A stretch of 64,000 nucleotides of DNA from Escherichia coli (GTDB taxonomy: Bacteria > Pseudomonadota > Gammaproteobacteria > Enterobacterales > Enterobacteriaceae), in NCBI RefSeq assembly GCF_003018235.1, contig NZ_CP027437.1, one strand, 5' to 3'. Below, one piece after another: positions 29,220 to 55,005 of the stretch (its first letter is position 1; every line of letters starts with the position of its first letter). Both the position numbers and the translations under genes were made by a program. The notes under the pieces are model-generated. The model searched no databases and had not been told where the DNA came from. It saw only the letters and a program-made list of their open reading frames with translations.

Positions 29220-30381
<1,162 letters not shown>

Positions 30382-30382
<1 letters not shown>

Positions 30383-31239
30383 TATTTCACCTCGCGGGAA
30401 AGTAGCTTCCACCAGGCGTCGATGGTCGGGTTTTTCGCCAGCATGACAAAGTCGATATCGCCATGCACTTTGCGCCAGCGCGCCGCCAGCGCCATCATCC
30501 GCACCGAATCCAGACCGTAGTCGATCAGGTTGTCGTCATCGAACGGTTCATCGGACTCGTCCAGCAACGGCAGGATCACCTCACGCAGCGCCGCTTTGCT
30601 GGCGGGGATAGGTGCTGGCAGTAATTCTTCGGTCATCACCACCCGGCCAGAACGTCCGGCCACATATTTCAGCGACATCAAATGCTCGTCACGGCTGAAA
30701 TCGGCCAGCGCATCTGCCACCATAAACGGTTTAATATCGCGCATAAATGCGTCGGTTGCGGTGGTCATACAGCCAATGTGGGCATATACCCCGGTAATAA
30801 TCAGCTGGTTACGTCCACTCTCTTTCAGCATTTGCTCCAGCGGGGAACGATGAAACGCGCTATAGCGCCACTTCACCAGCACCGTGTCGTCGGCATCTGG
30901 CGTCAGGCTATCCACCACCTTTTGCTGTTCCGGCGAACGGGTCAGGCCAGGCCCCCACATATCATTCAACAGCGCCCGATCTTCATCGCTCTGCTCTTTC
31001 GGCTGGGCGGTGTAATAAACCGGGATATTGTGCTGTTTGCAGTAGTCGCGTAGTGCCGCAATATTCGCGATCACCTGCTCCATCATCGGGCAGTTCTCGC
31101 CCCAGAAGCTGACAAAATAGTCCTGCATATCATGGATTAACAACGCGGCACGTTGCGGTTCAAAGGCCCAGTCGACTTTATTCTGCGGAATATCGTGAGA
31201 CTCCGGCAGTGCGTAAGCCTGTAATTTTGGAATAGCCAT
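30382..31239 (-). CDS. entB: Isochorismatase / aryl carrier protein EntB
   Basis: 285-aa ORF with isochorismatase domain and C-terminal ArCP (...DYGLDSVRMMAL...). Confidence 0.96.
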
Positions 31240-31252
31240 CGTGTTCTCTCCT

Positions 31253-32863
31253 TCAGGCTGATGCGCGTGACGCCAGCCACTGACGTAATTGTTTTTTATC
31301 GACTTTCCCGACCGCCGTCAGCGGAAGTGAATCCACACACTCCACGCGATCCGGTAATTTAAATTCGGCAATACCCTGTTCACGCAGGAAACGACGCACC
31401 TGCACCGCGCGTAGAGGCTCTTTTACCACCAGATAAGCACAGCTTTTTTCGCCCATCAGCTCATCTTCCATGCTCACCAGTGCGGCGTAGATCACCGCCG
31501 GATGGCGCAGCAGCAGGTTTTCGATCTCTTCGGCAGCGATCTTCTCGCCGCCACGGTTGATCTGATCTTTCTCGCGCCCCTGCACGGTGATGTACCCCTC
31601 TGGATCAATAGAGATCAGATCGCCGGAACAGTAAAAACCGTTGGCATCAAAGGCGCTGGCATTGTGCTGCGGGCTTTTGTAATAGCCACGGAAGGTGTAC
31701 GGACCGCGCGTCATCAGGCGTCCAACTTCTCCTTGCGGTAGTGGATTTCCTTCAGCATCGGCAACCCACACTTCATCGTCCGGACACATTGGATAGCCCT
31801 GGGTATGGATAATTTTCTCCGCGCTATCATCAAGACGGGTGTAGTTCACCAGCCCTTCCGCCATGCCAAACACCTGCTGCAACTGGCAGCCAATCTCAGC
31901 GGGAATACGCGCCGCAAGCGTGGCAGAAAGACGTGCGCCGCCGACCTGTAACAGTTTTAGCGAGGCAAGCTGCGCCTGGCTTTCGCCTTCGGTCAGCGCC
32001 TGTAACCACAGGCTGACTGCGGGTGGCACCAGCGCGGTGACGTTCACCTGATGTTTTTCAATCAATGGGAAACAGAGCGTGGCGCTGGGATCGGCCGCCA
32101 GAACGACCGTTCCTCCGGCAAGAAAGACGCCCAGCGATCCCGGCGAACTCATGGCGTAGTTGTGCGCCGCCGGAATCGCGCATAAATAGCGCGTCTGTTG
32201 TGTGAACTGACAAATCTCGACGCTACGACGCACGCTGTAGTAGTAGTCATTATGAGTGCGCGGGATCAGCTTCGGTGTGCCGGTGGTGCCGCCGGAAAGC
32301 TGGAAATAGGCCACTTCATCAGCAGGTGACGGCGTGGCAGTAAAATCCTCAGCCGGATGGTTAATCGCATCCTGCAAGTTATGCTCACCGCTGTCGTTGT
32401 GCAGTTGCACCACGCGAATGGAGGAATGCTCTGCAACAAATGTATTGAGGAAATCATCTCCGCTAAACAGCGCATGCTGGCGATCGGCAATCAGTAACGC
32501 CGGTTCAATCTGGCTGGCATAGGCGTTCAGTTCACTACGCTGATGGCTGAACAGCGCCAGCACCGGCGCAACGCCCAGTTTCAGCAGCGCGAAAAAGGTA
32601 ATATACAATTCAGCGACGTTACCCAGCTGTACCAGCGCGGTTTCACCAGGTTTAATGCCCTGACGGCGCAAACTACACGCGAGGTTATCCGCCGCCTGAT
32701 TCAGCTCCCGATAACTCAACTGCCTCTCGCCGTCGATAACCGCGATGCTGTCACTCGCAGCATGTCGCGTCAGAATGTCGGTCAGCGGCAAATCCTGCCA
32801 GTAGCCTTTTTCCCGATAGCGACGGGTAAACTCTTCCGGCCAGCGGGTAAATGGAATGCTCAT
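31253..32863 (-). CDS. entE: 2,3-dihydroxybenzoate-AMP ligase EntE
   Basis: 536-aa adenylate-forming enzyme ORF, matches EntE. Confidence 0.96.
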
Positions 32864-32872
32864 CCTCGCTCC

Positions 32873-34048
<1,176 letters not shown>

Positions 34049-34059
34049 ATCATCCTCCA

Positions 34060-34100
34060 CAAAATGATAAAGGCTTTAATAATGATTATCATTTATATTT
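34060..34100. promoter_or_regulatory. Fur box(es) in the divergent entC/fepB promoter
   Basis: aaaatgataaaggctttaataatgattatcatttat contains a near-consensus GATAATGATAATCATTATC-type iron box. Confidence 0.6.
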
Positions 34101-34236
34101 TCGGTCGCTAACCTAAAAGCAAACGCGCACTATGTCAACTCTTGAGGTAACGCAATCTGCAACTCGGGGTTGCATCTGGTTGTGGTTACAATGAAAATGA
34201 GAAGCATTAACTTCATTAATAACAGGAAGCTGATTT

Positions 34237-35193
34237 GTGAGACTCGTCCCGCTCTACCGCAACGCCCTTCTATTAACAGGACTTTTGCTTTCAGGAATAG
34301 TCGCAGTTCAGGCCGCCGACTGGCCGCGTCAGATTACTGACAGCCGTGGCACTCATTCCCTGGAAAGCCAGCCGCAGCGTATTGTTTCCACCAGCGTCAC
34401 CCTGACCGGCTCACTGCTGGCGATTGACGCTCCAGTGATTGCCAGCGGCGCGACCACGCCAAATAACCGCGTCGCGGATGACCAGGGCTTTTTACGCCAG
34501 TGGAGCAAGGTAGCGAAAGAACGCAAATTGCAACGACTCTATATCGGTGAACCAAGTGCCGAAGCCGTTGCCGCGCAAATGCCGGATCTGATTTTAATTA
34601 GCGCGACCGGCGGCGATTCGGCGCTGGCGCTGTATGATCAGCTTTCCACCATCGCCCCGACGTTAATCATCAATTACGACGACAAAAGCTGGCAGTCGCT
34701 GTTAACGCAACTTGGCGAAATTACCGGGCATGAGAAACAAGCGGCAGAGCGGATTGCACAGTTTGATAAGCAACTGGCGGCGGCGAAAGAGCAAATCAAA
34801 TTACCGCCGCAGCCGGTCACTGCCATTGTCTATACCGCCGCTGCACACAGTGCCAATCTCTGGACGCCGGAATCAGCACAAGGGCAGATGCTGGAACAAC
34901 TCGGCTTTACGTTGGCGAAATTGCCCGCAGGGTTAAATGCCAGCCAAAGCCAGGGTAAGCGTCATGACATCATTCAGCTTGGTGGGGAAAATCTGGCTGC
35001 AGGGTTAAATGGCGAGTCACTATTCCTGTTCGCCGGTGATCAGAAAGATGCCGATGCGATTTATGCTAATCCGCTGCTCGCGCACCTGCCTGCAGTACAA
35101 AACAAGCAGGTTTATGCGCTGGGAACCGAGACGTTCCGTCTGGATTACTACAGCGCCATGCAAGTGCTGGAACGGCTTAAGGCGCTGTTTTAA
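34237..35193 (+). CDS. fepB: Ferric enterobactin periplasmic binding protein FepB
   Basis: 318-aa ORF starting at GTG with AGGAAG Shine-Dalgarno; signal peptide; matches FepB. Confidence 0.94.
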
Positions 35194-35196
35194 GCA

Positions 35197-36447
35197 TTAA
35201 CTGTCGGACGCTGTCACCTGCGGCGGCGTCTGGCGAAAACGCCGCAACTCCACCAGCACCAGCAATAACAATACGCCGATAATCAACAAACCAAAACCGC
35301 TTGCGCTTGCGGAAGCAACCGGTGTCATCATCGCGCCCAAACCGCCCAGCAGCGCCGCGCCTATGGCATCGCCCGTCACGTTTTGTGCCGTCCACAAACC
35401 GTTAATCCGCCCTAACATCGCTTCCGGGGTTTGCGTTTGCAGCATTGTATATTGCAGCAACGAACTAACCGCGCTCAGCCAGCCGAATAGCGCCAGACAA
35501 ATCACGCCTAAAATCCACATCGGCATCAGGCCAAACAGCCCAATGGCGAGGAACGATCCCAGCGTGGAGAGCAGCATCAATAACCCTGGTCGCGCGCTAT
35601 GTGCCAGCTTCCCGCTGGTTAACGCGCCAATAGCCGCGCCGAGCGGGATCGCCGCATAGAGAAAACCAATCTGTGCCGCCGACATCTGCCAGTTGTCAGC
35701 CAGCGCCGGATACAGTACCCGCACCGCACTCGCCATCGTCAATAAACCACCCAGCAGCGCAATCCCTCCCACCAGCGGGCTGGCGAGCAGAAAACGAAAT
35801 CCTGCCAGTAATGATTTCAACGGATGCTCACGCGGCTGCGGTGGCGGTGGCAACGCCGGAAGGCTTAATAACGGCAGCAAGGTAATAAACGTGCCCGCCG
35901 CCGCCAGCCCGTAGTTCCAGGCTACGCCGCCGGTCGCCAGCAATAAACCGCCAATCATAGGCGAAATCACCGACCCCAGACGCACGGTCAACATGGTGAT
36001 CGCCCCGGCCTGCATTAAGTTTTCACGCCCTACCAGTGCAGGTGTCGCCGCCAGTAGCGCCGTAACGCCAAGCGATGCGAAAAAACCATCCCATAAACCG
36101 AGTAAATAGATTGCCAATAGAGATGGCTCCGGCAGCAGCGCGTTCAGGCACAGTCCAATGAAGCCAATGCCACAGGTGCCGCGCGCCAGCAAAATCACTT
36201 TTTTGCGCTCATAGCGATCCGCCAGCACACCGCCGACCATCAGGCCAACAAACATCGCGCCGCCGGTCAGCGTCACCGAAAGCCCCACCTGCCAGGTAGA
36301 ATGCGTCATCATCTGGATCTGCACTGGTACCGCGACGCCGAGCAAACCCAGAGACACAATTGAGATAAAACGAGCGAGGAATACTGCGCGAAACGCCGGG
36401 TGCGTTTTCAACAGGCTGAGGTTAAGCAGCCAGGATTGTTTATTCAT
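35197..36447 (-). CDS. entS: Enterobactin exporter EntS (MFS)
   Basis: 416-aa 12-TM MFS ORF, matches EntS/YbdA. Confidence 0.93.
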
Positions 36448-36520
36448 TACAATGCCTTGCCATCAAATATTTTAAATACCTATTCTTAGGCTGCACATGC
36501 TAACATATCCAAATAAGATC

Positions 36521-36545
36521 GATAACGATAATTAATTTCATTATC
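36521..36545. promoter_or_regulatory. Fur box in the divergent entS/fepD promoter
   Basis: gataacgataattaatttcattatc, near-perfect Fur consensus, abutting the fepD start region. Confidence 0.65.
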
Positions 36546-36557
36546 ATGGAAGTTCGT

Positions 36558-37562
36558 ATGTCTGGTTCTGTTGCCGTGACACGCGCCATTGCCGTGCCCG
36601 GATTGCTGTTATTACTGATTATCGCGACGGCATTAAGCCTGCTCATTGGGGCAAAATCACTCCCCGCTTCCGTAGTGCTGGAGGCCCTCTCCGGCACCTG
36701 CCAGAGCGCCGACTGCACCATCGTGCTCGACGCGCGGCTGCCGCGCACCCTTGCCGGTTTACTGGCAGGCGGCGCGCTTGGGCTTGCCGGGGCGTTAATG
36801 CAAACCCTCACCCGAAACCCACTTGCCGACCCCGGCTTGCTTGGTGTGAACGCCGGAGCCAGCTTTGCCATTGTGCTGGGTGCGGCGCTGTTTGGTTACT
36901 CATCCGCGCAGGAACAACTGGCGATGGCCTTCGCCGGGGCGCTGGTGGCCTCATTGATTGTTGCCTTTACCGGCAGCCAGGGCGGCGGGCAGTTAAGTCC
37001 GGTGCGTTTAACCCTGGCGGGCGTGGCGCTGGCGGCGGTGCTGGAAGGGCTGACCAGCGGCATCGCCCTGCTTAATCCTGACGTCTACGATCAACTGCGT
37101 TTCTGGCAAGCCGGTTCGCTGGATATTCGCAATCTACATACCTTAAAAGTTGTGCTGATCCCGGTGCTGATCGCCGGAGCAACCGCGCTATTACTGAGCC
37201 GCGCGCTGAACAGTTTAAGCCTCGGCAGTGACACCGCGACGGCGCTGGGCAGTCGCGTGGCGCGCACACAGTTGATTGGTCTGCTGGCGATTACCGTGCT
37301 TTGTGGTAGTGCAACGGCGGTAGTTGGCCCGATTGCCTTTATTGGCCTGATGATGCCGCATATGGCGCGTTGGCTGGTGGGTGCCGATCATCGCTGGTCG
37401 CTGCCCGTCACGCTGCTTGCTACCCCTGCCCTGCTGCTGTTTGCCGATATCATCGGGCGGGTGATTGTGCCCGGCGAACTGCGAGTTTCCGTGGTCAGTG
37501 CGTTTATTGGTGCACCGGTGCTGATCTTCCTCGTGCGACGTAAAACGCGAGGTGGCGCATGA
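36558..37562 (+). CDS. fepD: Ferric enterobactin ABC transporter permease FepD
   Basis: Start set at the second in-frame ATG (MSGSVAVTRAIA..., 334 aa); an alternative ATG lies at 36546. Confidence 0.9.
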   Translation: MSGSVAVTRAIAVPGLLLLLIIATALSLLIGAKSLPASVVLEALSGTCQSADCTIVLDARLPRTLAGLLAGGALGLAGALMQTLTRNPLADPGLLGVNAGASFAIVLGAALFGYSSAQEQLAMAFAGALVASLIVAFTGSQGGGQLSPVRLTLAGVALAAVLEGLTSGIALLNPDVYDQLRFWQAGSLDIRNLHTLKVVLIPVLIAGATALLLSRALNSLSLGSDTATALGSRVARTQLIGLLAITVLCGSATAVVGPIAFIGLMMPHMARWLVGADHRWSLPVTLLATPALLLFADIIGRVIVPGELRVSVVSAFIGAPVLIFLVRRKTRGGA

Positions 37563-38551
37563 TTTACGTCTCTCGCCGATTAATTATCACCTGTTTGCTG
37601 CTGGTTTCCGCCTGTGTGGTTGCAGGTATCTGGGGATTACGCAGCGGTACCATCACGCTGGAAACCTCGCAGATATTCGCCGCGCTGATGGGCGATGCGC
37701 CGCGCAGTATGACGATGGTGGTCACCGAATGGCGTTTACCACGCGTGCTGATGGCGCTGTTGATTGGCGCGGCACTGGGCGTCAGCGGCGCGATTTTTCA
37801 GTCGCTGATGCGTAACCCGCTCGGTAGTCCTGACGTAATGGGCTTTAACACCGGGGCGTGGAGCGGCGTGCTGGTGGCGATGGTGCTGTTTGGTCAGGAC
37901 CTGACGGCTATTGCCCTGGCAGCAATTGTGGGCGGCATTGTCACTTCGCTGCTGGTCTGGCTGCTCGCCTGGCGTAACGGCATCGACACCTTTCGGTTGA
38001 TTATTATTGGTATCGGCATTCGCGCCATGCTGGTGGCCTTTAATACCTGGCTGTTGCTGAAAGCGTCTTTAGAAACGGCGCTAACAGCGGGTTTGTGGAA
38101 TGCCGGATCGCTCAACGGCCTGACGTGGGCAAAAACCTCGCCTTCCGCACCCATCATTATATTGATGCTAATTGCCGCCGCCTTACTGGTACGCCGGATG
38201 CGCTTGCTGGAAATGGGCGATGATACCGCGTGTGCGCTGGGCGTCAGCGTCGAACGTTCGCGTCTGTTAATGATGCTGGTTGCCGTAGTGCTTACCGCTG
38301 CGGCAACAGCGCTTGCCGGGCCGATTTCCTTTATTGCTTTAGTCGCGCCACACATTGCCCGCCGCATTAGCAGCACCGCTCGCTGGGGGCTGACCCAGGC
38401 GGCGCTGTGCGGGGCGTTGTTACTGCTGGCGGCCGATCTCTGCGCCCAACAACTGTTTATGCCGTATCAACTTCCGGTTGGCGTCGTTACCGTCAGCCTC
38501 GGTGGTATTTACCTTATCGTCTTGTTAATTCAGGAGTCTCGCAAAAAATGA
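37559..38551 (+). CDS. fepG: Ferric enterobactin ABC transporter permease FepG
   Basis: 330-aa ORF; ATGA overlaps with fepD and fepC. Confidence 0.93.
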   Translation: MIYVSRRLIITCLLLVSACVVAGIWGLRSGTITLETSQIFAALMGDAPRSMTMVVTEWRLPRVLMALLIGAALGVSGAIFQSLMRNPLGSPDVMGFNTGAWSGVLVAMVLFGQDLTAIALAAIVGGIVTSLLVWLLAWRNGIDTFRLIIIGIGIRAMLVAFNTWLLLKASLETALTAGLWNAGSLNGLTWAKTSPSAPIIILMLIAAALLVRRMRLLEMGDDTACALGVSVERSRLLMMLVAVVLTAAATALAGPISFIALVAPHIARRISSTARWGLTQAALCGALLLLAADLCAQQLFMPYQLPVGVVTVSLGGIYLIVLLIQESRKK

Positions 38552-39363
38552 CCGAATCAGTAGCCCGTTTGCGTGGCGAACAGTTAACCCTCGGATATGG
38601 CAAATATACCGTTGCGGAAAATCTGACTGTAGAAATTCCTGATGGTCACTTCACGGCAATTATCGGGCCAAATGGCTGCGGTAAATCCACGTTACTGCGT
38701 ACTTTAAGCCGCCTGATGACGCCTGCTCACGGGCATGTCTGGCTGGATGGTGAGCACATTCAACATTACGCCAGTAAAGAGGTTGCACGCCGGATTGGCC
38801 TGTTGGCGCAAAATGCTACCACGCCGGGCGATATCACCGTGCAGGAGCTGGTGGCGCGTGGACGTTACCCGCATCAACCGCTGTTTACCCGCTGGCGCAA
38901 AGAGGATGAAGAAGCGGTAACGAAAGCGATGCAGGCCACGGGAATCACTCATCTGGCAGATCAAAGCGTGGATACCCTTTCTGGCGGACAACGCCAGCGA
39001 GCGTGGATAGCAATGGTGCTGGCCCAGGAAACGGCAATTATGCTGCTCGATGAACCAACGACCTGGCTGGATATCAGTCATCAGATTGATTTGCTGGAAC
39101 TGTTAAGCGAACTGAACCGCGAGAAAGGCTATACCCTGGCGGCGGTGCTGCACGATCTTAATCAGGCCTGTCGTTACGCCAGCCATTTGATTGCATTGCG
39201 GGAAGGGAAAATTGTTGCTCAGGGAGCGCCGAAGGAGATTGTCACTGCTGAATTGATCGAGCGCATTTATGGTCTGCGCTGCATGATTATTGACGACCCG
39301 GTTGCCGGAACGCCGCTCGTGGTGCCGCTCGGACGAACGGCACCTTCAACCGCAAATAGTTAA
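38548..39363 (+). CDS. fepC: Ferric enterobactin ABC transporter ATPase FepC
   Basis: Trimmed to MTESVARLRGEQL... (271 aa); Walker A GPNGCGKST, ABC signature LSGGQRQR. Confidence 0.95.
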   Translation: MTESVARLRGEQLTLGYGKYTVAENLTVEIPDGHFTAIIGPNGCGKSTLLRTLSRLMTPAHGHVWLDGEHIQHYASKEVARRIGLLAQNATTPGDITVQELVARGRYPHQPLFTRWRKEDEEAVTKAMQATGITHLADQSVDTLSGGQRQRAWIAMVLAQETAIMLLDEPTTWLDISHQIDLLELLSELNREKGYTLAAVLHDLNQACRYASHLIALREGKIVAQGAPKEIVTAELIERIYGLRCMIIDDPVAGTPLVVPLGRTAPSTANS

Positions 39364-40493
39364 ACTAAGTGGTCTGCTATCATGGCATCCTGTTTTCTGG
39401 ATGCCATCGCATAGCGCAACAGCACGCCACCACAAGCCACCATCCCGCCGATCATCGCAGAAAGGATCACAATAATCGCCTTACCCGGACCGTCTTTTTT
39501 CACTGGCAATGACGGGCTTAACTGATATTTAAACGGCGTAAAATTCACATCGTTGATATTTGCTTTTGTTAACTGCTCAACAAGATACTGACGATTACGT
39601 AATTCACCGTTCAGTTCCGCAACGTTAGTAACCGCTTTTTCAATTTCCAGTTTGCGTTCAATACCGTCTGCGCCGAGAGAAATAGAGAAATCGGGGTCAT
39701 CTTTAACGGCCTGACCATTACTGTAAACGGGCTTTTTAATTCCTGCCGCGTTGGCAATGTCGAGTGAATAATTGAGGCGCTGAATGTTTGCATCAAGTTG
39801 ATTTTTCGTTTTAATGCGATCCTGAGCCAGTTTTTCTTTTTCAAACTGGGTTTTGATCTCCAGTTTATTACGGACGTTTTCTATCGACTCTTTCACCACC
39901 AACGCAGAGATATAATCGATATACCCGCTCAAAACGGTCTGCGCCTCTTCACTGGTTGGCGCGGTAAAACTTAGCGTCCAGGAGTTATACAGTGACGGTT
40001 CATCTTTTTTCTTACTGGCATTGTCATCAACCGCTTTCATTTTTTCGCTCAATGCGACAATTGCGCGATGCAAATCCAGCTCGTCGATTTTCGCCTCTTT
40101 TAATTGGTCCATCACATAAGGTGTTGAGCGCAGGTACTCTTCCAGCAAGCTAACCGACTGAAACTTCTTGATAAACAGGTTAAATGCTTCTGTACGATCA
40201 ATTTTGATATCCAGATCCAGCACACGAAGCTTAGTGAATGTTTTCTCAAGCGCCTGCCACTGAACAGGTTCTGGAGGCGTGACAACCGCCGCGCTGGTCC
40301 ATTTTTGCGGCAGGATGAAAGAGATCAGTAAACCTGCGCAGGCAAACGCAAAAACGACCGCCATGACCGTTTTTTTGGCCCGCCATAAAACTTCGATTAG
40401 ATTAAGTAAATCAATTTCATTATTACTGGGCGACGCCAGAGGATACTCGGGAAAATGAGTGTCACTTCCCTGTTTAATATTCAGTGATGACAT
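39360..40493 (-). CDS. fepE: Polysaccharide co-polymerase (O-antigen very-long chain length regulator) FepE
   Basis: Trimmed to MSSLNIKQGSDTHFPEYPLASP... (377 aa). Confidence 0.9.
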   Translation of the reverse strand: MSSLNIKQGSDTHFPEYPLASPSNNEIDLLNLIEVLWRAKKTVMAVVFAFACAGLLISFILPQKWTSAAVVTPPEPVQWQALEKTFTKLRVLDLDIKIDRTEAFNLFIKKFQSVSLLEEYLRSTPYVMDQLKEAKIDELDLHRAIVALSEKMKAVDDNASKKKDEPSLYNSWTLSFTAPTSEEAQTVLSGYIDYISALVVKESIENVRNKLEIKTQFEKEKLAQDRIKTKNQLDANIQRLNYSLDIANAAGIKKPVYSNGQAVKDDPDFSISLGADGIERKLEIEKAVTNVAELNGELRNRQYLVEQLTKANINDVNFTPFKYQLSPSLPVKKDGPGKAIIVILSAMIGGMVACGGVLLRYAMASRKQDAMIADHLV

Positions 40494-40650
40494 GGGGTAT
40501 AACCTGAAAATGAGTCCAATAAGAGTAAATCTCCACGGCCCCCACTCTACCAGTTGGTGAGATTTATCCGAAGCTGAAGTTTGTAAATTACTCCCACTGA
40601 ATGCAACATTCACTCTATTTCAGAGAAACACCCACCAAATTTATAAATTA

Positions 40651-40693
40651 AACAAATGATAAACCCATAATTATTTTCTGTAATTATGGGTTT
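40651..40693 (-). terminator. Rho-independent terminator downstream of entF
   Basis: aaacccataattattttctgtaattatgggttt perfect 13-bp-arm hairpin; minus strand has a U-rich tract after it. Confidence 0.55.
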
Positions 40694-40708
40694 ATAGATA
40701 ATATAAAT

Positions 40709-43700
40709 TTACTTATTTAGCGTCGCACGAATAATCGGCCCAATTTTTTCAAACGCCACCGGAGAGATAATATCCACATGCGCACAATCCTGACGATAGA
40801 TATCCAGCTCAGCAATCCACGGTGCCCAGGCCTGTTCAGGACTCATACCTTCCTGAAGCGTGCGTTCGGCAACAAATAGCGTCGCTTTACCATCAAACGG
40901 TACGCTATGAGCTGTCGTCAGCAGGCGCACAGCATCAGCGTAGTTGCCTTCAATGGTGGTAAACAACTCCGTTGAAGTACTTCCCTGCTGTGCCGCCAGG
41001 AAGGCTTCGCGCTCGCGGTTAATCTCCGCCAGCACTTCCGGGTCCAGACCATTAGCCTCTTTTTCCTGCCAGTTTTGCGTTTCTGGCGGCCAGGTATCCA
41101 GCAAGCCAAGAAATGCCACCTGTTCGCCACGGGCACGCAGTCGCGCCGCAATGCCCTGCGCCAGCGTACCGCCCAGCGAATACCCCAGCAGGTAATAAGG
41201 GCCGTGCGGTTGTTGTTCAAGTAACGTTGCCAGATGCGCTTCGCAGACTTCATCCAGGTTTGCCGCGGTCTGCATGGGGCCATGAGGGCGCGGCGACTGA
41301 ATGCCAATAATCGACCATTGTGGATCGAGATAACGCGAAAGCACGCTAAACTGCCAGGCAAAACCGGAGGCCGGATGGAAACAAAACAGCGTCGGGCCAT
41401 TACCTTCACGCAACGGCAGAATGGTTTCGAATCCCATGCGCTGGGTGCTGTCTTCTTCACCATCAATAATCGTTGCCAGTTTGGCGACAGTTGACGCGAC
41501 CATCACCTGCCCCGGCGTCACCTGGCGGGTAAACTGCCGACTTAACTGCGCAGCCAGTTTCATTGCCAGTAGCGAATGACCGCCAAGCGCAAAGAAATCA
41601 GCATCGGCATCCTGCACGTCACAACCCAGCAACGACGAGAATGCCGCGGCGATAATCGTTTCACTGCCCGCTTTCGGCGCACGCCCCGGCGCTTGTGCCT
41701 TCAGTTCAGGCAACGGTAAGGCTTTGCGATCCAGCTTGCCGTTGGCGCTAAGCGGCAACTGCGGAAGTTGCAGCAGAACCACGGGCACCATATGCGGTGG
41801 CAATGTTTCGCGCAACTGCGCCTGCAATGCAGTGGTATCCAGCGGCAGGCCTGATTGCGACACCAGATACCCAACCAACTGACGCGCATCGCCTCCCGTT
41901 GCGGCAGCCTGGTTAATGACGCAGGCGTGGGTAACGGCCTGTTCGACATCCGGCAGTGCCTGCATCACGCGATCGATTTCGCCCAGTTCAATACGCTGCC
42001 CGCGAATTTTTAGCTGATCGTCACTGCGCCCGAGGTACTCCACCGCGCCGTTATCCAGCCAGCGGGCAACGTCTCCGGTACGGTACATCCGTTCGCCAGG
42101 GGCAAAAGGATCGGCAATAAAGCGGCTGGCGGTCAGATCGGGTCGTCCAAGATACCCCTGCGCCAGTTGAATACCGGTGAGATAGAGATCTCCCGCCACA
42201 CCCGGCGGCACCGGATGCATCATCGCATCAAGAATACGCAGGCCCGTATTCCACACCGGATAACCAATCGGCACACTGCTGCCGCGCACCTGTGCCAGTT
42301 CCTCGCCAAAAGCCGGATACCAGCTGACATCTACCGCCGCTTCCGTCGGGCCATATAAATTATGCAACGGCGCGCTGGTTAACTGTTGCCATTCGCGGCA
42401 TAAATCAGCGGGTAAGGCCTCACCACTACAGAAAACCTGTTTCAACGTCGCGCAATTCTGACGAGCGGTTTGCGGAGTCAGCGATGCAACAAATGCCGCC
42501 AGCATCGACGGCACAAAGTGCGTGGTCGTTACACCATATTCGGCAAAGAATTGCTGCATAGCGAGCGGGTCGCGGTGCGCTTCCGGTTCAGCCATCACCA
42601 GTTTAGCCCCGGCAATAAACGGCCAGAAAAACTCCCACACCGAGACATCAAAACTGCACGGCGTTTTTTGGGCAACGACATCTTCGCCTGTAAGCGGGTA
42701 GTGGTTTTGCATCCAAAGCAGGCGGTTAACGATAGCCGTCTGCCCGACCATTACCCCTTTTGGTCTGCCGGTGGAACCTGAGGTGAAGATGATATAAGCC
42801 GTGTGGTGCGGTTGTGAAAGCTGCAGCGGCGCACTGCCCTGCGGTGTAAGCGGGGCGTTATAGCAAAGGTTGGTTAAATCTGGAACATCGGCAAAGCGCG
42901 GCAGTTGATCGTCGGTGGTGATTAACAGCGACGGACGCGCATCTTCCAGCATCATTTTCAAGCGATCGTCCGGATAACCGGTATCCAGCGGTAGCCAGGC
43001 CGCGCCAGCTTCAACTATCGCATGTAGCGCCAGGGTCAAAAAGACCGAGCGCGGTAGCGCCACCGCCACGCTGTCCCCTGGTTTAACGCCGCGCTCACGC
43101 AGCAGATTCGCCAGCGCCACCACCTGCTCGCGCATTTCCCGATAGCTGAACTGGTAACGCGCATCTGCCAGCGCCGGAGCATGCGGCGTTTTTGCCGCTT
43201 GTTCTGCCACCAGCGCGCTAAGCGTGGTTTCTGGAATCTCAACCTGAGTGGCGTTGATCTGCGCCAGCTGCGCATACTCACCTGGCAGCATAATATCGAC
43301 ATCGCCGCACAACAGCGCCGGATCCGCGGCGAACTGGGCAATCAGCATTTTCAGGCGTTCAGCATGCTGGATTAACGTTGGCTCATCGTAACGCTGTTTA
43401 TTGGCGAGGATCTCAATACTCAAATCACCGTGTTCATCCGGGAACAGTGCCAGTTCAAGGTCATTAACCGGACCGGTTGCTAGTGTATGGGTTTGCGCCT
43501 GAACACCAGGAATATCCAGTTGGTAATCAAATACCTTGATATTGAGTACCGGACCAAACAGCGGTTCATCACCTGCCGCTCGCCCGCTGTCACGGACAAT
43601 TTGTTCGGCATCGTAACGTTGATGACGACGCATTTTTTTCAGTTGTGCTGCCAGTCGGGTTGCCAGTTGCGGCAGCGTTTCTTGCGCCGCAATGTGAATA

Positions 43701-44590
43701 CCCAACGGTAAAACGTTGAGCACGGGTCCGGTAGCCGTCAGCGCCGCCGAGCCCAGTCGACGCATAAAGATAAATCCGGCAGCGTAGTCCATGCGGTTGC
43801 ACAATCGCCCCAGCCACAAAGCCGTCAGCGCAAGGGCTAAATCGGTACGCTGCACACCTGAAAGTTGCGTAGCCAGCTGGCGGAATTCCCCGTCGGTAAA
43901 TTCCAGTTTCAGGCGCAAAATATCTGCCGAAGCGCTGCGCCCCGGTAAAGGTGCCGGAGAAAGTGACGCGGGCGGTGGCAGTTGACGACGCTGTTCCGCC
44001 CAGAATGCCGCATCACGCTGCCAGGCTTCGCTTTCGCGGTATTGCTGGTACTCTTCCACTACATCAGCGAAAGGCGTAAACGGCGAAGCAGGCGTTGGTT
44101 CGCCACGCAGCAATGCGCAGTAAATATTGGCGATCTGGCGTGTAATGGCCGGGAAACTGAAGCCATCGACCAGCAAATGGTGATAACGCTGATACCAGTA
44201 CCAGCGGTTATCCGCCACCTGTATCAGTTGATGAAAGACCAGTGGTTTACCACTATCGACGCGCAGATCTTGTTGCAAATCCGCCTGCATTAATGCCCGC
44301 GCAGTACCGTGCGGATCAATGTTGGTTCGCAGGTCGATAATTTCTGGCAGTTCGAACGTCTGCGCATCATCGACCCACTGCCAGACTTCGCCGTTATCTT
44401 CCGTAAAACGCATCCGCAACGTATCTGCTTGCGCTAGTCCGGCAACCACCGCGCGGGCCAGTAATGGCGCATCAACCTCTCCGGTTAACTCAACGTAATG
44501 CGCCACGCTCCAGGCGGAGGGTAAATCCGACAGTTTTTCTGCCATCCAGATGCCGGGCTGTGCGGCGACCAAAGGTAAATGCTGGCTCAT
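40709..44590 (-). CDS. entF: Enterobactin non-ribosomal peptide synthetase EntF (C-A-PCP-TE)
   Basis: 1293-aa ORF with condensation, adenylation (serine-activating), PCP (GGHSL) and thioesterase (GYSLGG) domains. Confidence 0.97.
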   Translation of the reverse strand: MSQHLPLVAAQPGIWMAEKLSDLPSAWSVAHYVELTGEVDAPLLARAVVAGLAQADTLRMRFTEDNGEVWQWVDDAQTFELPEIIDLRTNIDPHGTARALMQADLQQDLRVDSGKPLVFHQLIQVADNRWYWYQRYHHLLVDGFSFPAITRQIANIYCALLRGEPTPASPFTPFADVVEEYQQYRESEAWQRDAAFWAEQRRQLPPPASLSPAPLPGRSASADILRLKLEFTDGEFRQLATQLSGVQRTDLALALTALWLGRLCNRMDYAAGFIFMRRLGSAALTATGPVLNVLPLGIHIAAQETLPQLATRLAAQLKKMRRHQRYDAEQIVRDSGRAAGDEPLFGPVLNIKVFDYQLDIPGVQAQTHTLATGPVNDLELALFPDEHGDLSIEILANKQRYDEPTLIQHAERLKMLIAQFAADPALLCGDVDIMLPGEYAQLAQINATQVEIPETTLSALVAEQAAKTPHAPALADARYQFSYREMREQVVALANLLRERGVKPGDSVAVALPRSVFLTLALHAIVEAGAAWLPLDTGYPDDRLKMMLEDARPSLLITTDDQLPRFADVPDLTNLCYNAPLTPQGSAPLQLSQPHHTAYIIFTSGSTGRPKGVMVGQTAIVNRLLWMQNHYPLTGEDVVAQKTPCSFDVSVWEFFWPFIAGAKLVMAEPEAHRDPLAMQQFFAEYGVTTTHFVPSMLAAFVASLTPQTARQNCATLKQVFCSGEALPADLCREWQQLTSAPLHNLYGPTEAAVDVSWYPAFGEELAQVRGSSVPIGYPVWNTGLRILDAMMHPVPPGVAGDLYLTGIQLAQGYLGRPDLTASRFIADPFAPGERMYRTGDVARWLDNGAVEYLGRSDDQLKIRGQRIELGEIDRVMQALPDVEQAVTHACVINQAAATGGDARQLVGYLVSQSGLPLDTTALQAQLRETLPPHMVPVVLLQLPQLPLSANGKLDRKALPLPELKAQAPGRAPKAGSETIIAAAFSSLLGCDVQDADADFFALGGHSLLAMKLAAQLSRQFTRQVTPGQVMVASTVAKLATIIDGEEDSTQRMGFETILPLREGNGPTLFCFHPASGFAWQFSVLSRYLDPQWSIIGIQSPRPHGPMQTAANLDEVCEAHLATLLEQQPHGPYYLLGYSLGGTLAQGIAARLRARGEQVAFLGLLDTWPPETQNWQEKEANGLDPEVLAEINREREAFLAAQQGSTSTELFTTIEGNYADAVRLLTTAHSVPFDGKATLFVAERTLQEGMSPEQAWAPWIAELDIYRQDCAHVDIISPVAFEKIGPIIRATLNK

Positions 44591-44805
44591 TGTGCCTCCT
44601 GCAACTGGGTGAAATTCGCCGGTGTCAGAGTACGCCAGTGGGCTTCAAGCCACTGCTGGCAGGACGCCTGTGACTGCGGCTGACACACAACGTCCCAGCC
44701 TGCCGGTAAGGCGCATTGTTGCGGCCACAGACTGAATTGCCCCTGCGCATTGCGCAAAATGTAAAACACGCCCTGCGGATCATCGAAGGGATTACTGAAT
44801 GCCAT
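44587..44805 (-). CDS. ybdZ: MbtH-like protein YbdZ
   Basis: Trimmed to MAFSNPFDDPQGVFYILRNAQGQFSLWP... (72 aa); overlaps the entF start by 4 nt. Confidence 0.9.
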   Translation of the reverse strand: MAFSNPFDDPQGVFYILRNAQGQFSLWPQQCALPAGWDVVCQPQSQASCQQWLEAHWRTLTPANFTQLQEAQ

Positions 44806-44807
44806 AT

Positions 44808-46010
44808 TCAACTCCTGTCATGGAAAAGTGGTTGCCAGAGGTCGATTAGCCCCTGCATCAAGCCACCGCGCCAACAAAGCGCATCATGTCCGCCGTCAAC
44901 CTGACGCCAGAAAATGGATTCTTTTATGGGGTGTAATTGCGCATACAGCGCCTGATTGGCCCGCATGATCATCGGCTCGCGAATACCCGCTTCCAGCACA
45001 ATGCGCAGACCTTCGGCGCTAACTTCACCAGCTTTAAGTTGCTCAAGTAAAACACCTTCTTGCTGCCCGCCCCGATGCGGCCACCAGTACGATCCTGACT
45101 GGCTTAATACACAGCCAAAGCGTTCAGGCCAGTGCAGTCCGGCATACAGCGCGGAAAGCCCACCAAAACTCTGCCCGGCGACCACGGTGCGATCGGCGCG
45201 ATCGCTAAAAGGGGCAATAGCTTTCACCAGGGGTAATAACTCTTGCTGTACTGCCAGCCAGAAATCCGCATTACACGGCAGTTCGTGGGCGCGGTGCGTG
45301 GTGTCGATAGCGTCGATCAACACATACACGGCGGGAGGAAGTTGCCGACGATGGGTCAGCGAAGTCAGCACAGGCCAGACGGGCATACTTTGCGCCCAAA
45401 ATTCGCCATCGAGCAAAACTGCCAGCGGGCGTTCTTCTGCTGTTACATCGCCGGTGGTAAAAATCCATACACGACGTGAATTTTTCAGCCGTTCACTTTT
45501 CCAGATAATTTCTTTGACAGGTATTTCTGGCGCTTGCGGACAATCCCATCCCGGTTGCAGAGGCGCTTGCGGCATTTCGAGTGCAGAAACAGCGTGCCCT
45601 CGCCCGCCTTTCCAGCTTTGTGGATTCAGCGGATCGGCTATCGCCTGGGGTAATAGTTTTCGCCAGCCTTCGCGTAATTCGAGGCGATCAGGGGATGGTG
45701 CAGAAAAAATGTCATCGCGTTCGGTGGGAATAAAGCAGTAGCTGCCGCGCCAGTTGGCATTGAGTTGTGTCGTCCACTGCCAGACATCAGTACCTGCAAT
45801 TCGCTGCATCGACTGGGGCTGGCTGTTCTGATGGTGATCGGTCACACCAGTGATGTAGACCCATACCCGCTTTATCGTCGAGTATTCTTCAGAACCTTGG
45901 GGATCACGCCACCAGAAAGTGACCTCAAACATTTCGTCATTCAGACGCTGCCATTCCGGGCCATGTTTCGACTGCCACCAGCTCTCACTTCCTACTTTTA
46001 ACGCCGTCAC
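44808..46010 (-). CDS. fes: Enterochelin (ferric enterobactin) esterase Fes
   Basis: 400-aa ORF with alpha/beta-hydrolase GQSFGG motif. Confidence 0.93.
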   Translation of the reverse strand: MTALKVGSESWWQSKHGPEWQRLNDEMFEVTFWWRDPQGSEEYSTIKRVWVYITGVTDHHQNSQPQSMQRIAGTDVWQWTTQLNANWRGSYCFIPTERDDIFSAPSPDRLELREGWRKLLPQAIADPLNPQSWKGGRGHAVSALEMPQAPLQPGWDCPQAPEIPVKEIIWKSERLKNSRRVWIFTTGDVTAEERPLAVLLDGEFWAQSMPVWPVLTSLTHRRQLPPAVYVLIDAIDTTHRAHELPCNADFWLAVQQELLPLVKAIAPFSDRADRTVVAGQSFGGLSALYAGLHWPERFGCVLSQSGSYWWPHRGGQQEGVLLEQLKAGEVSAEGLRIVLEAGIREPMIMRANQALYAQLHPIKESIFWRQVDGGHDALCWRGGLMQGLIDLWQPLFHDRS

Positions 46011-46057
46011 ACCATAACCCCATGTTTACTGTGCAATTTTTCATTGATTGCAGAAAT

Positions 46058-46090
46058 ATATTGATAATATTATTGATAACTATTTGCATT
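46058..46090. promoter_or_regulatory. Overlapping Fur boxes in the divergent fes/fepA promoter
   Basis: atattgataatattattgataactatttgc: tandem GATAAT hexamer repeats. Confidence 0.6.
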
Positions 46091-46252
46091 TGCAATAGCG
46101 TAATGGCGCGCCGTGGGAAGCGCGGACATTAATTAACCAACTGCACTGCGTGTCTTTCAGGATCAAAGGTTTTCGCGGTAGCGGGGTGCGTCGTATTGAT
46201 GACGACCATGCCTGACAGTTGCAATTCGTGGCAAAAATGCAGGAATAAAACA

Positions 46253-48493
46253 ATGAACAAGAAGATTCATTCCCTGGCCTTGTTGGTCAATCTGGGGATT
46301 TATGGGGTAGCACAGGCACAAGAGCCAACCGATACTCCTGTTTCACATGACGATACCATTGTCGTTACCGCCGCCGAGCAGAACTTGCAGGCGCCTGGCG
46401 TTTCGACCATCACCGCAGATGAAATCCGCAAAAACCCCGTTGCCCGCGATGTCTCGGAGATCATCCGTACCATGCCAGGCGTTAACCTGACCGGTAACTC
46501 CACCAGTGGTCAGCGTGGGAATAACCGACAGATTGATATTCGCGGTATGGGTCCGGAAAACACGCTGATTTTGATTGACGGCAAGCCGGTAAGCAGCCGT
46601 AACTCGGTGCGTCAGGGCTGGCGTGGCGAGCGCGATACCCGTGGTGATACCTCCTGGGTGCCACCTGAAATGATTGAACGTATTGAAGTTCTGCGTGGTC
46701 CGGCAGCTGCGCGTTATGGCAACGGCGCGGCGGGCGGCGTGGTTAACATCATTACCAAAAAAGGCAGTGGTGAGTGGCACGGCTCCTGGGACGCATATTT
46801 CAATGCGCCAGAACATAAAGAGGAAGGTGCCACTAAACGCACCAACTTCAGCCTGACCGGTCCGCTGGGCGACGAATTCAGCTTCCGCTTGTATGGCAAC
46901 CTCGACAAAACCCAGGCTGACGCGTGGGATATCAACCAGGGCCATCAGTCCGCGCGTGCCGGAACGTATGCCACGACGTTACCAGCCGGGCGCGAAGGGG
47001 TAATTAACAAAGATATTAATGGCGTGGTGCGCTGGGACTTCGCGCCATTGCAATCGCTGGAACTGGAAGCAGGTTACAGCCGCCAGGGCAACCTGTATGC
47101 GGGCGACACCCAGAACACCAACTCCGATTCCTATACCCGCTCGAAATATGGCGATGAAACCAACCGTCTGTATCGCCAGAACTACTCGCTGACCTGGAAC
47201 GGCGGCTGGGATAACGGAGTGACCACCAGCAACTGGGTGCAGTACGAACACACCCGTAACTCGCGTATTCCGGAAGGTCTGGCGGGCGGTACCGAAGGGA
47301 AATTTAACGAAAAAGCGACACAGGATTTCGTCGATATCGATCTTGATGACGTGATGCTGCACAGCGAAGTTAACCTGCCGATTGATTTCCTCGTTAACCA
47401 GACGCTGACGCTGGGTACGGAGTGGAATCAGCAGCGGATGAAGGATTTAAGTTCCAACACCCAGGCGCTCACTGGGACGAATACCGGCGGTGCTATTGAT
47501 GGTGTGAGTGCGACAGACCGTAGCCCATATTCAAAAGCAGAAATTTTCTCGCTGTTTGCCGAAAACAATATGGAGCTGACTGACAGCACCATCGTAACGC
47601 CTGGGCTGCGTTTCGATCATCACAGCATTGTTGGCAATAACTGGAGTCCGGCGCTGAACATCTCGCAAGGTTTAGGTGATGACTTCACTCTGAAAATGGG
47701 CATTGCCCGTGCTTATAAAGCGCCGAGTCTGTACCAGACTAACCCAAACTACATTCTCTATAGTAAAGGTCAGGGCTGCTATGCCAGCGCGGGCGGCTGC
47801 TATCTGCAAGGTAATGATGACCTGAAAGCGGAAACCAGTATTAACAAAGAGATTGGTCTGGAGTTCAAGCGCGACGGCTGGCTGGCGGGCGTCACCTGGT
47901 TCCGTAACGATTATCGCAATAAGATTGAAGCGGGCTATGTGGCTGTAGGGCAAAACGCAGTCGGCACCGATCTCTATCAGTGGGATAACGTACCGAAAGC
48001 GGTGGTTGAAGGTCTGGAAGGATCGCTAAACGTACCGGTTAGCGAAACGGTGATGTGGACCAATAACATCACTTATATGCTGAAGAGTGAAAACAAAACC
48101 ACGGGCGACCGTTTGTCGATCATCCCGGAGTATACGTTGAACTCAACGCTGAGCTGGCAGGCACGGGAAGATTTGTCGATGCAAACAACCTTCACCTGGT
48201 ACGGCAAGCAGCAGCCGAAGAAGTACAACTATAAAGGTCAGCCAGCGGTTGGACCGGAAACCAAAGAAATCAGCCCGTACAGCATTGTTGGCCTGAGCGC
48301 GACCTGGGATGTGACGAAGAATGTCAGTCTGACCGGCGGCGTGGACAACCTGTTCGACAAACGTTTGTGGCGTGCGGGTAATGCCCAGACCACGGGCGAT
48401 CTGGCAGGAGCCAACTATATCGCCGGTGCCGGGGCGTATACCTATAACGAGCCGGGACGTACGTGGTATATGAGCATTAATACTCACTTCTGA
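46253..48493 (+). CDS. fepA: TonB-dependent ferrienterobactin outer-membrane receptor FepA
   Basis: ORF-track TTG start trimmed to MNKKIHSLALLVNLGIYGVAQA... (746 aa); TonB box DTIVVTA; C-terminal aromatic residue. Confidence 0.96.
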   Translation: MNKKIHSLALLVNLGIYGVAQAQEPTDTPVSHDDTIVVTAAEQNLQAPGVSTITADEIRKNPVARDVSEIIRTMPGVNLTGNSTSGQRGNNRQIDIRGMGPENTLILIDGKPVSSRNSVRQGWRGERDTRGDTSWVPPEMIERIEVLRGPAAARYGNGAAGGVVNIITKKGSGEWHGSWDAYFNAPEHKEEGATKRTNFSLTGPLGDEFSFRLYGNLDKTQADAWDINQGHQSARAGTYATTLPAGREGVINKDINGVVRWDFAPLQSLELEAGYSRQGNLYAGDTQNTNSDSYTRSKYGDETNRLYRQNYSLTWNGGWDNGVTTSNWVQYEHTRNSRIPEGLAGGTEGKFNEKATQDFVDIDLDDVMLHSEVNLPIDFLVNQTLTLGTEWNQQRMKDLSSNTQALTGTNTGGAIDGVSATDRSPYSKAEIFSLFAENNMELTDSTIVTPGLRFDHHSIVGNNWSPALNISQGLGDDFTLKMGIARAYKAPSLYQTNPNYILYSKGQGCYASAGGCYLQGNDDLKAETSINKEIGLEFKRDGWLAGVTWFRNDYRNKIEAGYVAVGQNAVGTDLYQWDNVPKAVVEGLEGSLNVPVSETVMWTNNITYMLKSENKTTGDRLSIIPEYTLNSTLSWQAREDLSMQTTFTWYGKQQPKKYNYKGQPAVGPETKEISPYSIVGLSATWDVTKNVSLTGGVDNLFDKRLWRAGNAQTTGDLAGANYIAGAGAYTYNEPGRTWYMSINTHF

Positions 48494-48532
48494 TGCTAAC
48501 GTCAGATTGTTGACAAAGTGCGCGTAGTTCAT

Positions 48533-48630
48533 GCCGGATGCGGCGTGAACGCCTTATCCGGCCTACAAAAATCTTGCCAATTCAATATATTGCAGGACCA
48601 CGTAGGCCTGATAAGCGTAGCGCATCAGGC
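48533..48630. repeat. BIME: two inverted REP (palindromic unit) elements in the fepA-entD intergenic region
   Basis: gccggatgcggcgtgaacgccttatccggcctac ... gtaggcctgataagcgtagcgcatcaggc, classic REP consensus in opposite orientations. Confidence 0.7.
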
Positions 48631-48667
48631 AGTTTTGCGTTTGTCAACATTCTCTAATATGGTCGAC

Positions 48668-49288
48668 ATGAAAACTACGCATACCGCCCTCCCCTTTGCC
48701 GGAAATACGCTGCATTTTGTTAAGTTCGATCCGGCGAGTTTTCGCGAGCAGGATTTACTCTGGCTGCCACACTACGCACAACTGCAACACGCTGGACGTA
48801 AACGTAAAACAGAGCATTTAGCTGGACGAATCGCTGCTGTTTATGCCTTGCGGGAATATGACTATAAATATGTGCCCGCTATCGGCGAGCTACGCCAACC
48901 TGTGTGGCCTGCGGAGGTATACGGCAGTATTAGCCACTGCGGGACTACGGCATTAGCCGTGGTATCTCGTCAACCGATTGGCATTGATATCGAAGAGATT
49001 TTCTCTGTACAAACCGCAAGAGAATTGACAGACAACATTATTACACCAGCAGAACACGAGCGACTCGCAGAATGCGGTTTAACCTTTTCTCTGGCGCTAA
49101 CACTGGCATTTTCCGCCAAAGAGAGCGCATTTAAGGCATCGGAGAGACAAACTGATGCAGGATTTCTGGATTATCAGATAATTAGCTTGAATAAACAGCA
49201 GATCATCATTCGACTAGAGGATGAGCAGTTTGCTGTGCACTGGCAGATAAAAGAAAAGATAGTCATAACGCTGTGCCAACACGATTAA
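48668..49288 (+). CDS. entD: Phosphopantetheinyl transferase EntD
   Basis: ORF-track 256-aa entry runs through the REP element and is trimmed to MKTTHTALPFAGNTLHF... (206 aa); an alternative ATG lies 9 nt upstream (48659). Confidence 0.88.
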   Translation: MKTTHTALPFAGNTLHFVKFDPASFREQDLLWLPHYAQLQHAGRKRKTEHLAGRIAAVYALREYDYKYVPAIGELRQPVWPAEVYGSISHCGTTALAVVSRQPIGIDIEEIFSVQTARELTDNIITPAEHERLAECGLTFSLALTLAFSAKESAFKASERQTDAGFLDYQIISLNKQQIIIRLEDEQFAVHWQIKEKIVITLCQHD

Positions 49289-49437: not shown

Positions 49438-49590
49438 CTACTTCTTCGGTTCGTAAGCGAGAACAGCCTTAAACTCAATATTACGTTCCTTCACCGTAAA
49501 CTCACACAGCGAGTCGCGGACCAGAAGCGTAAATCCCAGCACCGTTAAACACAGCACTATGACTGCCACAAGGGCATATTTCGTCAGCAT
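49438..49590 (-). CDS. Hok-family membrane toxin, copy 1 (in-frame Mok extension from the ATG at 49626)
   Basis: 50-aa [50 protein letters not shown]; GGAGG Shine-Dalgarno lies inside the upstream mok frame ([12 protein letters not shown]). Confidence 0.8.
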
Positions 49591-49624
49591 GTTTATATTG
49601 CCTCCATGCGAAGAAGGGACTACC

Positions 49625-49692
49625 ATCCGAGTTGTTGAGGTTCGGAGTGGCAGCCCCAGGATTGATAGAAATATCTCCTGGGGCTTCATCTT
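49625..49692 (+). ncRNA. Putative Sok-like antisense RNA, copy 1 (boundaries approximate)
   Basis: Plus-strand hairpin gccccagg-N16-cctggggc followed by ttcatcttt, antisense to the mok initiation region. Confidence 0.3.
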
Positions 49693-50093: not shown

Positions 50094-50127
50094 GTTTATA
50101 TTGCCTCCATGCGAAGAAGGGACTACC

Positions 50128-50597: not shown

Positions 50598-50631
50598 GTT
50601 TATATTGCCTCCATGCGAAGAAGGGACTACC

Positions 50632-53709: not shown

Positions 53710-55005
<1,296 letters not shown>

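Follow-up and report, generated by a model that had tools for sequence, protein, structure and literature searches.

Predicted Fur operator arrays in the three bidirectional control regions of an Escherichia coli enterobactin cluster

How many Fur operators serve an enterobactin cluster, and how closely do they follow those of K-12? The question is raised by a 64-kb stretch of DNA (hereafter the window), in which an earlier note had recognised three Fur boxes, one for each pair of divergent promoters: entC/fepB, entS/fepD and fes/fepA. Our reading, to which we give a probability of about 95%, is that the window carries an E. coli-group strain's chromosomal cluster for making, exporting and taking up enterobactin, and that its iron-repressed units are served by four Fur operator arrays. 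The Fur operators of this cluster are already known, and the note was right to label them so: the sites match footprinted K-12 operators. Nothing here is out of the ordinary apart from the number of operator regions, which is four instead of three.

The boxes had also been taken as confirmation that the cluster is intact. Fur sites are uninformative on this point; the genes themselves show that the cluster is indeed intact. The full set (entD, fepA, fes, ybdZ, entF, fepE, fepC, fepG, fepD, entS, fepB, entC, entE, entB, entA, entH) is present in an E. coli-type ent/fep/fes cluster, with the gene order and relative orientation of K-12 (synteny with NC_000913.3), the whole being reversed in the window relative to K-12. 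In a tblastn comparison with K-12, all 16 genes aligned over their full length and gap-free, at 92 to 100% amino-acid identity, with correct lengths and start codons and no internal stops. They form the entC-entE-entB-entA-entH operon (29220-34048, minus strand; 99 to 100% amino-acid identity), fepB (34237-35193, plus strand; GTG start), entS (35197-36447, minus), the fepD-fepG-fepC operon (36558-39363, plus), fes-ybdZ-entF-fepE (39360-46010, minus) and fepA-entD (46253-49288, plus). The product furthest from its K-12 counterpart is EntD (92% identity), whose exact sequence occurs only in NCBI draft assemblies. The FepD of E. albertii reached 100% identity over its best segment, which raised the idea that the window might come from that species; we reject this, because at the DNA level the identity is only 90.6% to E. 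albertii, against 98.1% to E. coli. The window also contains a cstA pseudogene, which had raised the suspicion of a Shigella source; that source is not supported. No insertion-sequence element was noted among the open reading frames inspected.

To place the operators, the K-12 DNase I Fur footprints tabulated by Chen et al. 2007 (Table 3, PMC2189734) were converted to NC_000913.3 coordinates and matched to the window. Three of them had an exact reverse-complement match: the 49-bp entC footprint at 34054-34102, the 69-bp fepD-entS footprint at 36508-36576 and the 48-bp fepA-fes footprint at 46055-46102, in agreement with pairwise K-12 alignments of the three regions. We assign these intervals, on footprint identity, matrix score and conservation, to the entC (entCEBAH) operator, the shared entS/fepDGC operator and the shared fes/fepA operator; the stretches picked out in the earlier note all lie inside them. 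The fourth footprint, that of fepB (31 bp), was identical over its first 23 bp (34187-34209) and different over its last 8 bp.

A weight matrix was trained on 15 K-12 Fur sites, all outside the ent cluster (leave-one-out median of the training sites, 21.0 bits). When the window was scanned with it, a check that the note had proposed, the nine best matches in the 64 kb all fell in the three named intergenic regions. The first three were 34075-34093 (24.8 bits), 46072-46090 (19.6) and 36524-36542 (18.2), followed by 36518-36536 (14.9), 34190-34208 (14.8), 34081-34099 (14.5), 34063-34081 (10.2), 46060-46078 (9.3) and 34196-34214 (8.1). Outside these regions the best match reached 7.5 bits, and the scan found no other Fur site above 8 bits at fepE, ybdZ, entD or elsewhere in the window. 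No 'box' is a single 19-mer: each comprises an array in which two to four dimer sites overlap in a 6-bp register, with site starts at 34063/34075/34081 (entC), 34190/34196 (fepB), 36518/36524/36530 (entS/fepD, the last site, 36530-36548, scoring 3.9 bits) and 46060/46072 (fes/fepA). All four arrays lie in intergenic DNA, within the three regions that separate ent, fep and fes genes, and their best scores are 24.8, 14.8, 18.2 and 19.6 bits, respectively. They fit the overlapping Fur sites at 6-bp (or 3-bp) spacing described in PMC2189734.

Measured against the classical Fur box, the 19-mer GATAATGATWATCATTATC, the picture is more uneven. The entS/fepD operator contains matches of 16/19 (36527-36545) and 15/19 (36521-36539), and those of entC (34078-34096) and fepB (34193-34211) reach 15/19, whereas the best match at fes/fepA is only 13/19 (46075-46093), weak by this consensus. 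Since 21 sites in the window reach that level, the description 'near-consensus' holds for only two of the three sites to which it had been applied, entC and entS/fepD.

The count of three was incomplete as well: an operator at fepB (34187-34214), supported by partial footprint identity, matrix score and a conserved core, had been missed. That there are exactly three single boxes, one per divergent promoter pair, is very unlikely. It is true that one strong core site stands out in each region (24.8, 18.2 and 19.6 bits), and single shared operators have reportedly been described for fes/fepA and entS/fepD; yet every region contains several overlapping sites in the 6-bp register, and the entC-fepB region contains two operators about 115 bp apart, separately footprinted in K-12 and both conserved. 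The promoters of fepB and entC face away from each other, and each is served by a Fur site of its own, the two not overlapping (Chen 2007, PMC2189734; Pakarian and Pawelek 2016, PMC5020551), and the two boxes give bidirectional iron-controlled expression (PMC5020551).

A putative entC promoter could be read from the sequence at 34110-34138 on the minus strand, with a -35 hexamer TTGACA (34133-34138, reverse complement), a 17-bp spacer and a -10 hexamer TAGGTT (34110-34115, reverse complement); the two hexamers coincide with blocks conserved across genera, TGTCAAC and TAACCTAA. Transcription is predicted to start near 34103, which would place the entC array at about +5 to +41. This agrees with the published position of Fur box 2, downstream of its own +1, -10 and -35 (PMC5020551). 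The putative fepB promoter (34170-34198, plus strand) comprises a -35 TTGCAT (34170-34175), a 17-bp spacer and a -10 GAAAAT (34193-34198); almost every genus keeps CTTGCAT and TGAAAATGAGAAGCATTAAC, whereas the spacer differs from one to another. With a start predicted near 34205, the fepB operator overlaps both the -10 and the +1, its array extending from about -16 to +10. The two predicted starts are about 102 bp apart, which fits the 103 bp that Brickman et al. reportedly found in 1990. For fes, fepA, entS and fepD, a simple sigma-70 consensus scan yielded no convincing promoters, and mostly called hexamers inside the Fur boxes. At fes/fepA and entS/fepD we take the shared array to lie within compact, overlapping divergent promoters.

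Conservation was examined on comparable loci from about 80 species of Enterobacteriaceae, and on cross-genus alignments of the three regions. No locus lacked a site of 17.7 bits or more in any of the intergenic regions: the score was 19 bits or more at an unchanged offset from entC in 76 of 76 entC-fepB loci, 18.2 bits or more in all 79 entS/fepD loci, and 17.7 bits or more in all 62 fes/fepA loci. In the rest of each locus (about 20 kb), the median maximum was 9.4 bits. In the alignments, invariant islands amid diverged spacers mark the operators as well as the promoter hexamers of entC and fepB. The entC operator is an invariant block in an alignment of 11 genera, the fepB operator core is kept across genera, entS/fepD has the conserved block GCACATGCTAACATA...GATAACGATAATTA.T.TCATTATCA, and the whole fes/fepA footprint is almost invariant across the 11 genera.

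Such blocks might owe their conservation mainly to a role in the core promoters, or to another regulator that binds there, their likeness to Fur sites being secondary. Operators do overlap -10 or -35 hexamers, the Fur consensus is itself -10-like, and the promoter scan repeatedly placed hexamers inside boxes. The entC array, however, lies downstream of a conserved -35 and -10, where no promoter element is needed, and yet it is the best conserved and highest scoring of all; moreover, the identical K-12 sequences have been directly footprinted with Fur (PMC2189734). We consider this explanation very improbable, even more so than that of three single boxes. Chance products of AT-rich promoter DNA, with no specific relation to Fur, are effectively refuted: the intergenic regions are AT-rich (31 to 42% GC), the 13/19 level of fes/fepA is common and shuffled 64-kb windows reached 12.9 bits on average, but 200 dinucleotide-preserving shuffles of the window predicted 0.34 sites of at least 14 bits and 0.055 of at least 18 bits where 6 and 3 were observed, local shuffles that keep the AT-richness of each intergenic region reached the observed maximum in at most 0.1% of trials, and the sites match footprinted K-12 DNA exactly and recur in all species examined.

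With four Fur arrays retained as the preferred reading, the cluster would be governed by three bidirectional control regions serving six units: entCEBAH, fepB, entS, fepDGC, fes-ybdZ-entF-fepE and fepA-entD. Each array would consist of overlapping 19-bp (9-1-9) dimer sites in the 6-bp register. With enough iron, Fe2+-Fur dimers would sit on the arrays and keep RNA polymerase out or block it: at fepB by covering the -10 hexamer and +1, at entC from just downstream of +1, and at entS/fepD and fes/fepA through one shared array each, so that both directions would be repressed together. When iron is scarce, apo-Fur would leave and the six units would be transcribed. It is from sequence identity that we infer iron regulation of the cluster in this strain; Fur occupancy and the exact transcription starts are likewise predicted, and the fur gene lies outside the window. 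The analysis is useful as an annotation check, and Fur biology gains nothing new from it: the siderophore cluster is complete and its regulatory DNA unaltered, and the strain can thus be expected to make enterobactin when iron is limiting.

The comparison with K-12 revealed one contrast, a mildly informative by-product, in the fepB leader. In K-12, a 186-bp palindromic repeat is inserted directly after ...GAGAAGCATTA; the insertion point borders the fepB operator and lies some 4 nt downstream of the predicted fepB start. The window lacks the repeat, and the fepB-entC intergenic region is 374 bp long in K-12 compared to 188 bp here. This insertion is why the final 8 bp of the footprint at fepB in K-12 differ from the window. 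The repeat is a strongly structured stretch, which lengthens the predicted leader to about 217 nt. The leader predicted for the window, from the putative start and the K-12 alignment, is 31 nt. This short leader, with its weaker second site, is shared with most other Enterobacteriaceae and, among complete E. coli genomes, with about 43%. The repeat at fepB is present in K-12 and in roughly half of E. coli genomes, and copies related to it occupy a median of 6 places per genome. The insertion was also observed in E. whittamii, with an internal deletion, which points to an old polymorphism or to transfer by recombination. A literature search for earlier reports on a repeat in the fepB leader returned nothing relevant. 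It is a tentative possibility that the K-12 operator and leader are a derived chimera, the short leader being ancestral, and that Fur occupancy and post-transcriptional control of fepB differ systematically between two common E. coli alleles. The repeat-built part of the K-12 operator matters when K-12 binding-site models or fepB/entC promoter cassettes are transferred between strains.

Elsewhere the window follows the K-12 systems closely. In the fepDGC-entS (ybdA) region (Christoffersen et al. 2001; Lavrrar et al. 2002), the 110-bp intergenic sequence and the 69-bp footprint are 100% identical, without a single difference. Its core site in Escherichia, AACGATAATTAATTTCATT (18.2 bits), is weaker than the AACGATAATTACTATCATT (23.4 bits) of most other genera. 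The fepA-fes region (Hunt, Pettis and McIntosh 1994; Escolar et al. 1998) agrees at every base of the 48-bp footprint, and its three single-base differences all lie in the fepA leader, far from the operator. In the fepB-entC region (Brickman, Ozenberger and McIntosh 1990; tabulated in PMC2189734 and PMC5020551), the identity covers, at every base, the entC operator, both promoters and, in the fepB operator, the 23 bp nearest the promoter. Beyond them, the K-12 repeat supplies most of a second fepB dimer site of 18.7 bits, compared to 8.1 bits in the window, and for this reason the K-12 footprint is not transferable to the second half of the window's fepB operator.

Four Fur operator regions, rather than the three boxes counted in the earlier note, were found in the enterobactin cluster. 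The DNase I footprints of Fur in K-12 were tabulated by Chen et al. 2007 (Table 3, PMC2189734); +777 was added to their coordinates to bring them onto the present K-12 record, a shift checked against the gene-relative positions of Table 4 (PMC2189734). The three ent control regions of the window are near-identical to those of K-12, and the footprints of entC (34054-34102), fepD-entS (36508-36576) and fepA-fes (46055-46102) are matched exactly. Each contains one of the stretches already singled out as a Fur box (34060-34100, 36521-36545 and 46058-46090). The identification of these boxes is correct; they are real, already known, and do their job as a sanity check.

A weight matrix was kept independent of the ent cluster by training it on 13 other Fur targets, each represented by a 19-mer centred on its strongest site (fhuA, gpmA, fiu, sufA, cir, mntH, exbB, bfd, ryhB, sodA, fecI, fecA and fhuF), to which the best position inside the fur and tonB footprints was added; the set was symmetrised and turned into a log-odds matrix. 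Its consensus is AATGATAATCATTATCATT, and the training sites have a leave-one-out median of 21.0 bits. Scanning the 64-kb window, the check that had been proposed for the boxes, placed the best nine positions within the three ent intergenic regions: starts 34075 (24.8 bits), 46072 (19.6), 36524 (18.2), 36518 (14.9), 34190 (14.8), 34081 (14.5), 34063 (10.2), 46060 (9.3) and 34196 (8.1). The tenth lay at 53820 (7.5 bits). At 14 bits or more, six sites were observed, compared to 0.34 expected from 200 dinucleotide-preserving shuffles of the window, and at 18 bits or more, three compared to 0.055; when the AT-rich intergenic regions were shuffled singly (2000 trials), the observed maximum was equalled in between 0 and 0.1% of cases. 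When the window was compared with the classical 19-mer, its top four distinct matches (15-16/19) were all ent sites. The fes/fepA site agrees with it at just 13 of 19 positions, as do 21 other places in the window. Among the named sites, 'near-consensus' is therefore apt for entC and entS/fepD (15-16/19) but not for fes/fepA, which is accepted as a Fur site because of its matrix score, footprint identity and conservation.

The operator that had been overlooked, that of fepB, spans 34187-34214; the matrix detects sites in it at 34190 and 34196, and the classical box is matched at 15/19 positions at 34193-34211. Two distinct protected regions are described between fepB and entC (PMC2189734, PMC5020551), where two non-overlapping Fur boxes provide bidirectional iron control (PMC5020551); this separate fepB operator brings the cluster total to four. 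Within each region, overlapping sites are arrayed in a 6-bp register, in place of a single box. Promoter hexamers are visible in 11-genus alignments for both entC (34138-34110, minus strand; TTGACA, 17 bp, TAGGTT) and fepB (34170-34198; TTGCAT, 17 bp, GAAAAT), and lead to predicted starts near 34103 and 34205, respectively, about 102 bp apart. This agrees with the 103 bp reportedly found by Brickman et al. in 1990. Relative to these predicted starts, the entC array would span roughly +5 to +41 and that of fepB roughly -16 to +10, both consistent with the description in PMC5020551.

A scan guided by the FepD protein yielded 80 loci from about 80 species of Enterobacteriaceae, in which the six flanking start codons were placed by tblastn. 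Every locus containing a given intergenic region had a strong Fur site there: 76 of 76 for entC-fepB (median best score 23.7 bits, minimum 19.0 bits), 79 of 79 for entS-fepD (23.4 and 18.2 bits) and 62 of 62 for fes-fepA (19.6 and 17.7 bits). The offset of the site from the left-hand gene was almost constant, and the maximum score over the rest of each locus (~20 kb) had a median of 9.4 bits. The operators form invariant islands in the alignments of 11 genera.

At the entS/fepD core site (36524-36542), the form seen in Escherichia, …TTAATTTCATT, consistently scores lower (18.2 bits) than the …TTACTATCATT of nearly all other genera (23.4 bits; compared loci L020-L095). A short GC stem-loop (46105-46125; CGCGC, 8-nt loop, GCGCG) directly adjoins the fes/fepA footprint, which puts it within the leader of fepA, or upstream of fes; its sequence is kept in most genera and absent in Trabulsiella.

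Judging from these sequences, regulation of the cluster in this strain very probably proceeds as follows. Fe2+-Fur dimers would fill the overlapping sites, occluding the fepB promoter and blocking initiation or early elongation at entC; in the compact fes/fepA and entS/fepD regions, a single shared array would repress both directions. Loss of iron would release Fur, and all six transcription units would be expressed. At fes/fepA, Hunt et al. are said to have described, in 1994, one fes promoter, two tandem fepA promoters and a single Fur site; the entS/fepD promoters are overlapping and opposing, as Christoffersen et al. reportedly found in 2001.

The ORF listing and comparison with NC_000913.3 revealed a complete cluster, reversed relative to K-12: entH-entA-entB-entE-entC (29220-34048, minus), fepB (34237-35193, plus), entS (35197-36447, minus), fepD-fepG-fepC (36558-39363, plus), fepE-entF-ybdZ-fes (39360-46010, minus) and fepA-entD (46253-49288, plus). 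All 16 products align with K-12 at full length and without gaps, and all 16 frames open with a start codon, equal their K-12 counterparts in length and are free of internal stops. The cluster is intact, as the earlier note held, but this is established by direct comparison with K-12 and not by the Fur boxes from which it had been concluded. EntD (48668-49288) is the most diverged protein, at 92% amino-acid identity, compared to 96-100% for the others (highest, FepC at 100%); its exact sequence was matched in NCBI draft assemblies only. Of 5426 complete E. coli genomes, 5411 match the 20.5-kb cluster over at least 80% of its length; the highest identity is 98.1%, compared to 94% for Escherichia sp. 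MOD1-EC7003 and 90.6% for E. albertii. These identities place the window in E. coli in the narrow sense, in a lineage that is without a close representative among the complete E. coli genomes.

Other features of the window were recorded. The cstA gene (27067-29039, minus) has a 133-bp deletion at 28675-28707 between two GCCGGGG direct repeats, and the resulting frameshift leaves fragments of 116 and 541 aa, compared to a 701-aa protein. The best complete E. coli genome matches listed for this region are all in two pieces, none at 99% identity or more, and four outgroup Escherichia loci are likewise interrupted at the deletion point, so that the deletion looks lineage-specific. The entD-ybdK interval (49582-50743) holds three tandem hok/sok modules spaced by ~503 bp (Rfam sok matches at 49582, 50085 and 50589), whereas K-12 has one hokE/sokE plus IS186; draft assemblies sharing the EntD of the window have at least one to three HOK_GEF genes. 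In the fepA-entD spacer (48568-48609), the small RNA ES036 (CssrF) of Rfam scores slightly above its gathering score (42.2 compared to 37.6 bits). Rfam matches outside the cluster are routine: a cspA thermoregulator (2994-3352), an rnk leader (16425-16533) and STnc70 (20338-20431).

The sole part of the finding with any potential novelty is a polymorphism of the fepB leader. The entC-fepB spacer measures 188 bp in the window, compared to 374 bp in K-12, where 186 extra bases directly follow ...GAGAAGCATTA. These bases, absent from the window, are a palindromic repeat inserted in the leader of fepB where it borders the Fur operator (window 34209-34214, against 18525-18715 in the K-12 locus, L001). 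The insert is a repeated element that occupies 6 places in the median E. coli genome and as many as 13, and its RNA is predicted to form a long imperfect hairpin (-94 kcal/mol, z = -6). By junction-specific searches of the 5426 complete E. coli genomes, 2347 have the short form and 2755 the long one. Since most other genera share both the spacer length (183-189 bp) and the sequence ...GCATTAAC... with the window, the short form is ancestral. In E. whittamii, the same insertion as in K-12 occupies this junction but has an internal deletion of ~86 bp. In K-12, the final 8 bp of the fepB footprint lie inside the insert, and the second fepB dimer site is AATGAGAAGCATTATTGAT (18.7 bits), whereas in the window it is AATGAGAAGCATTAACTTC (8.1 bits).
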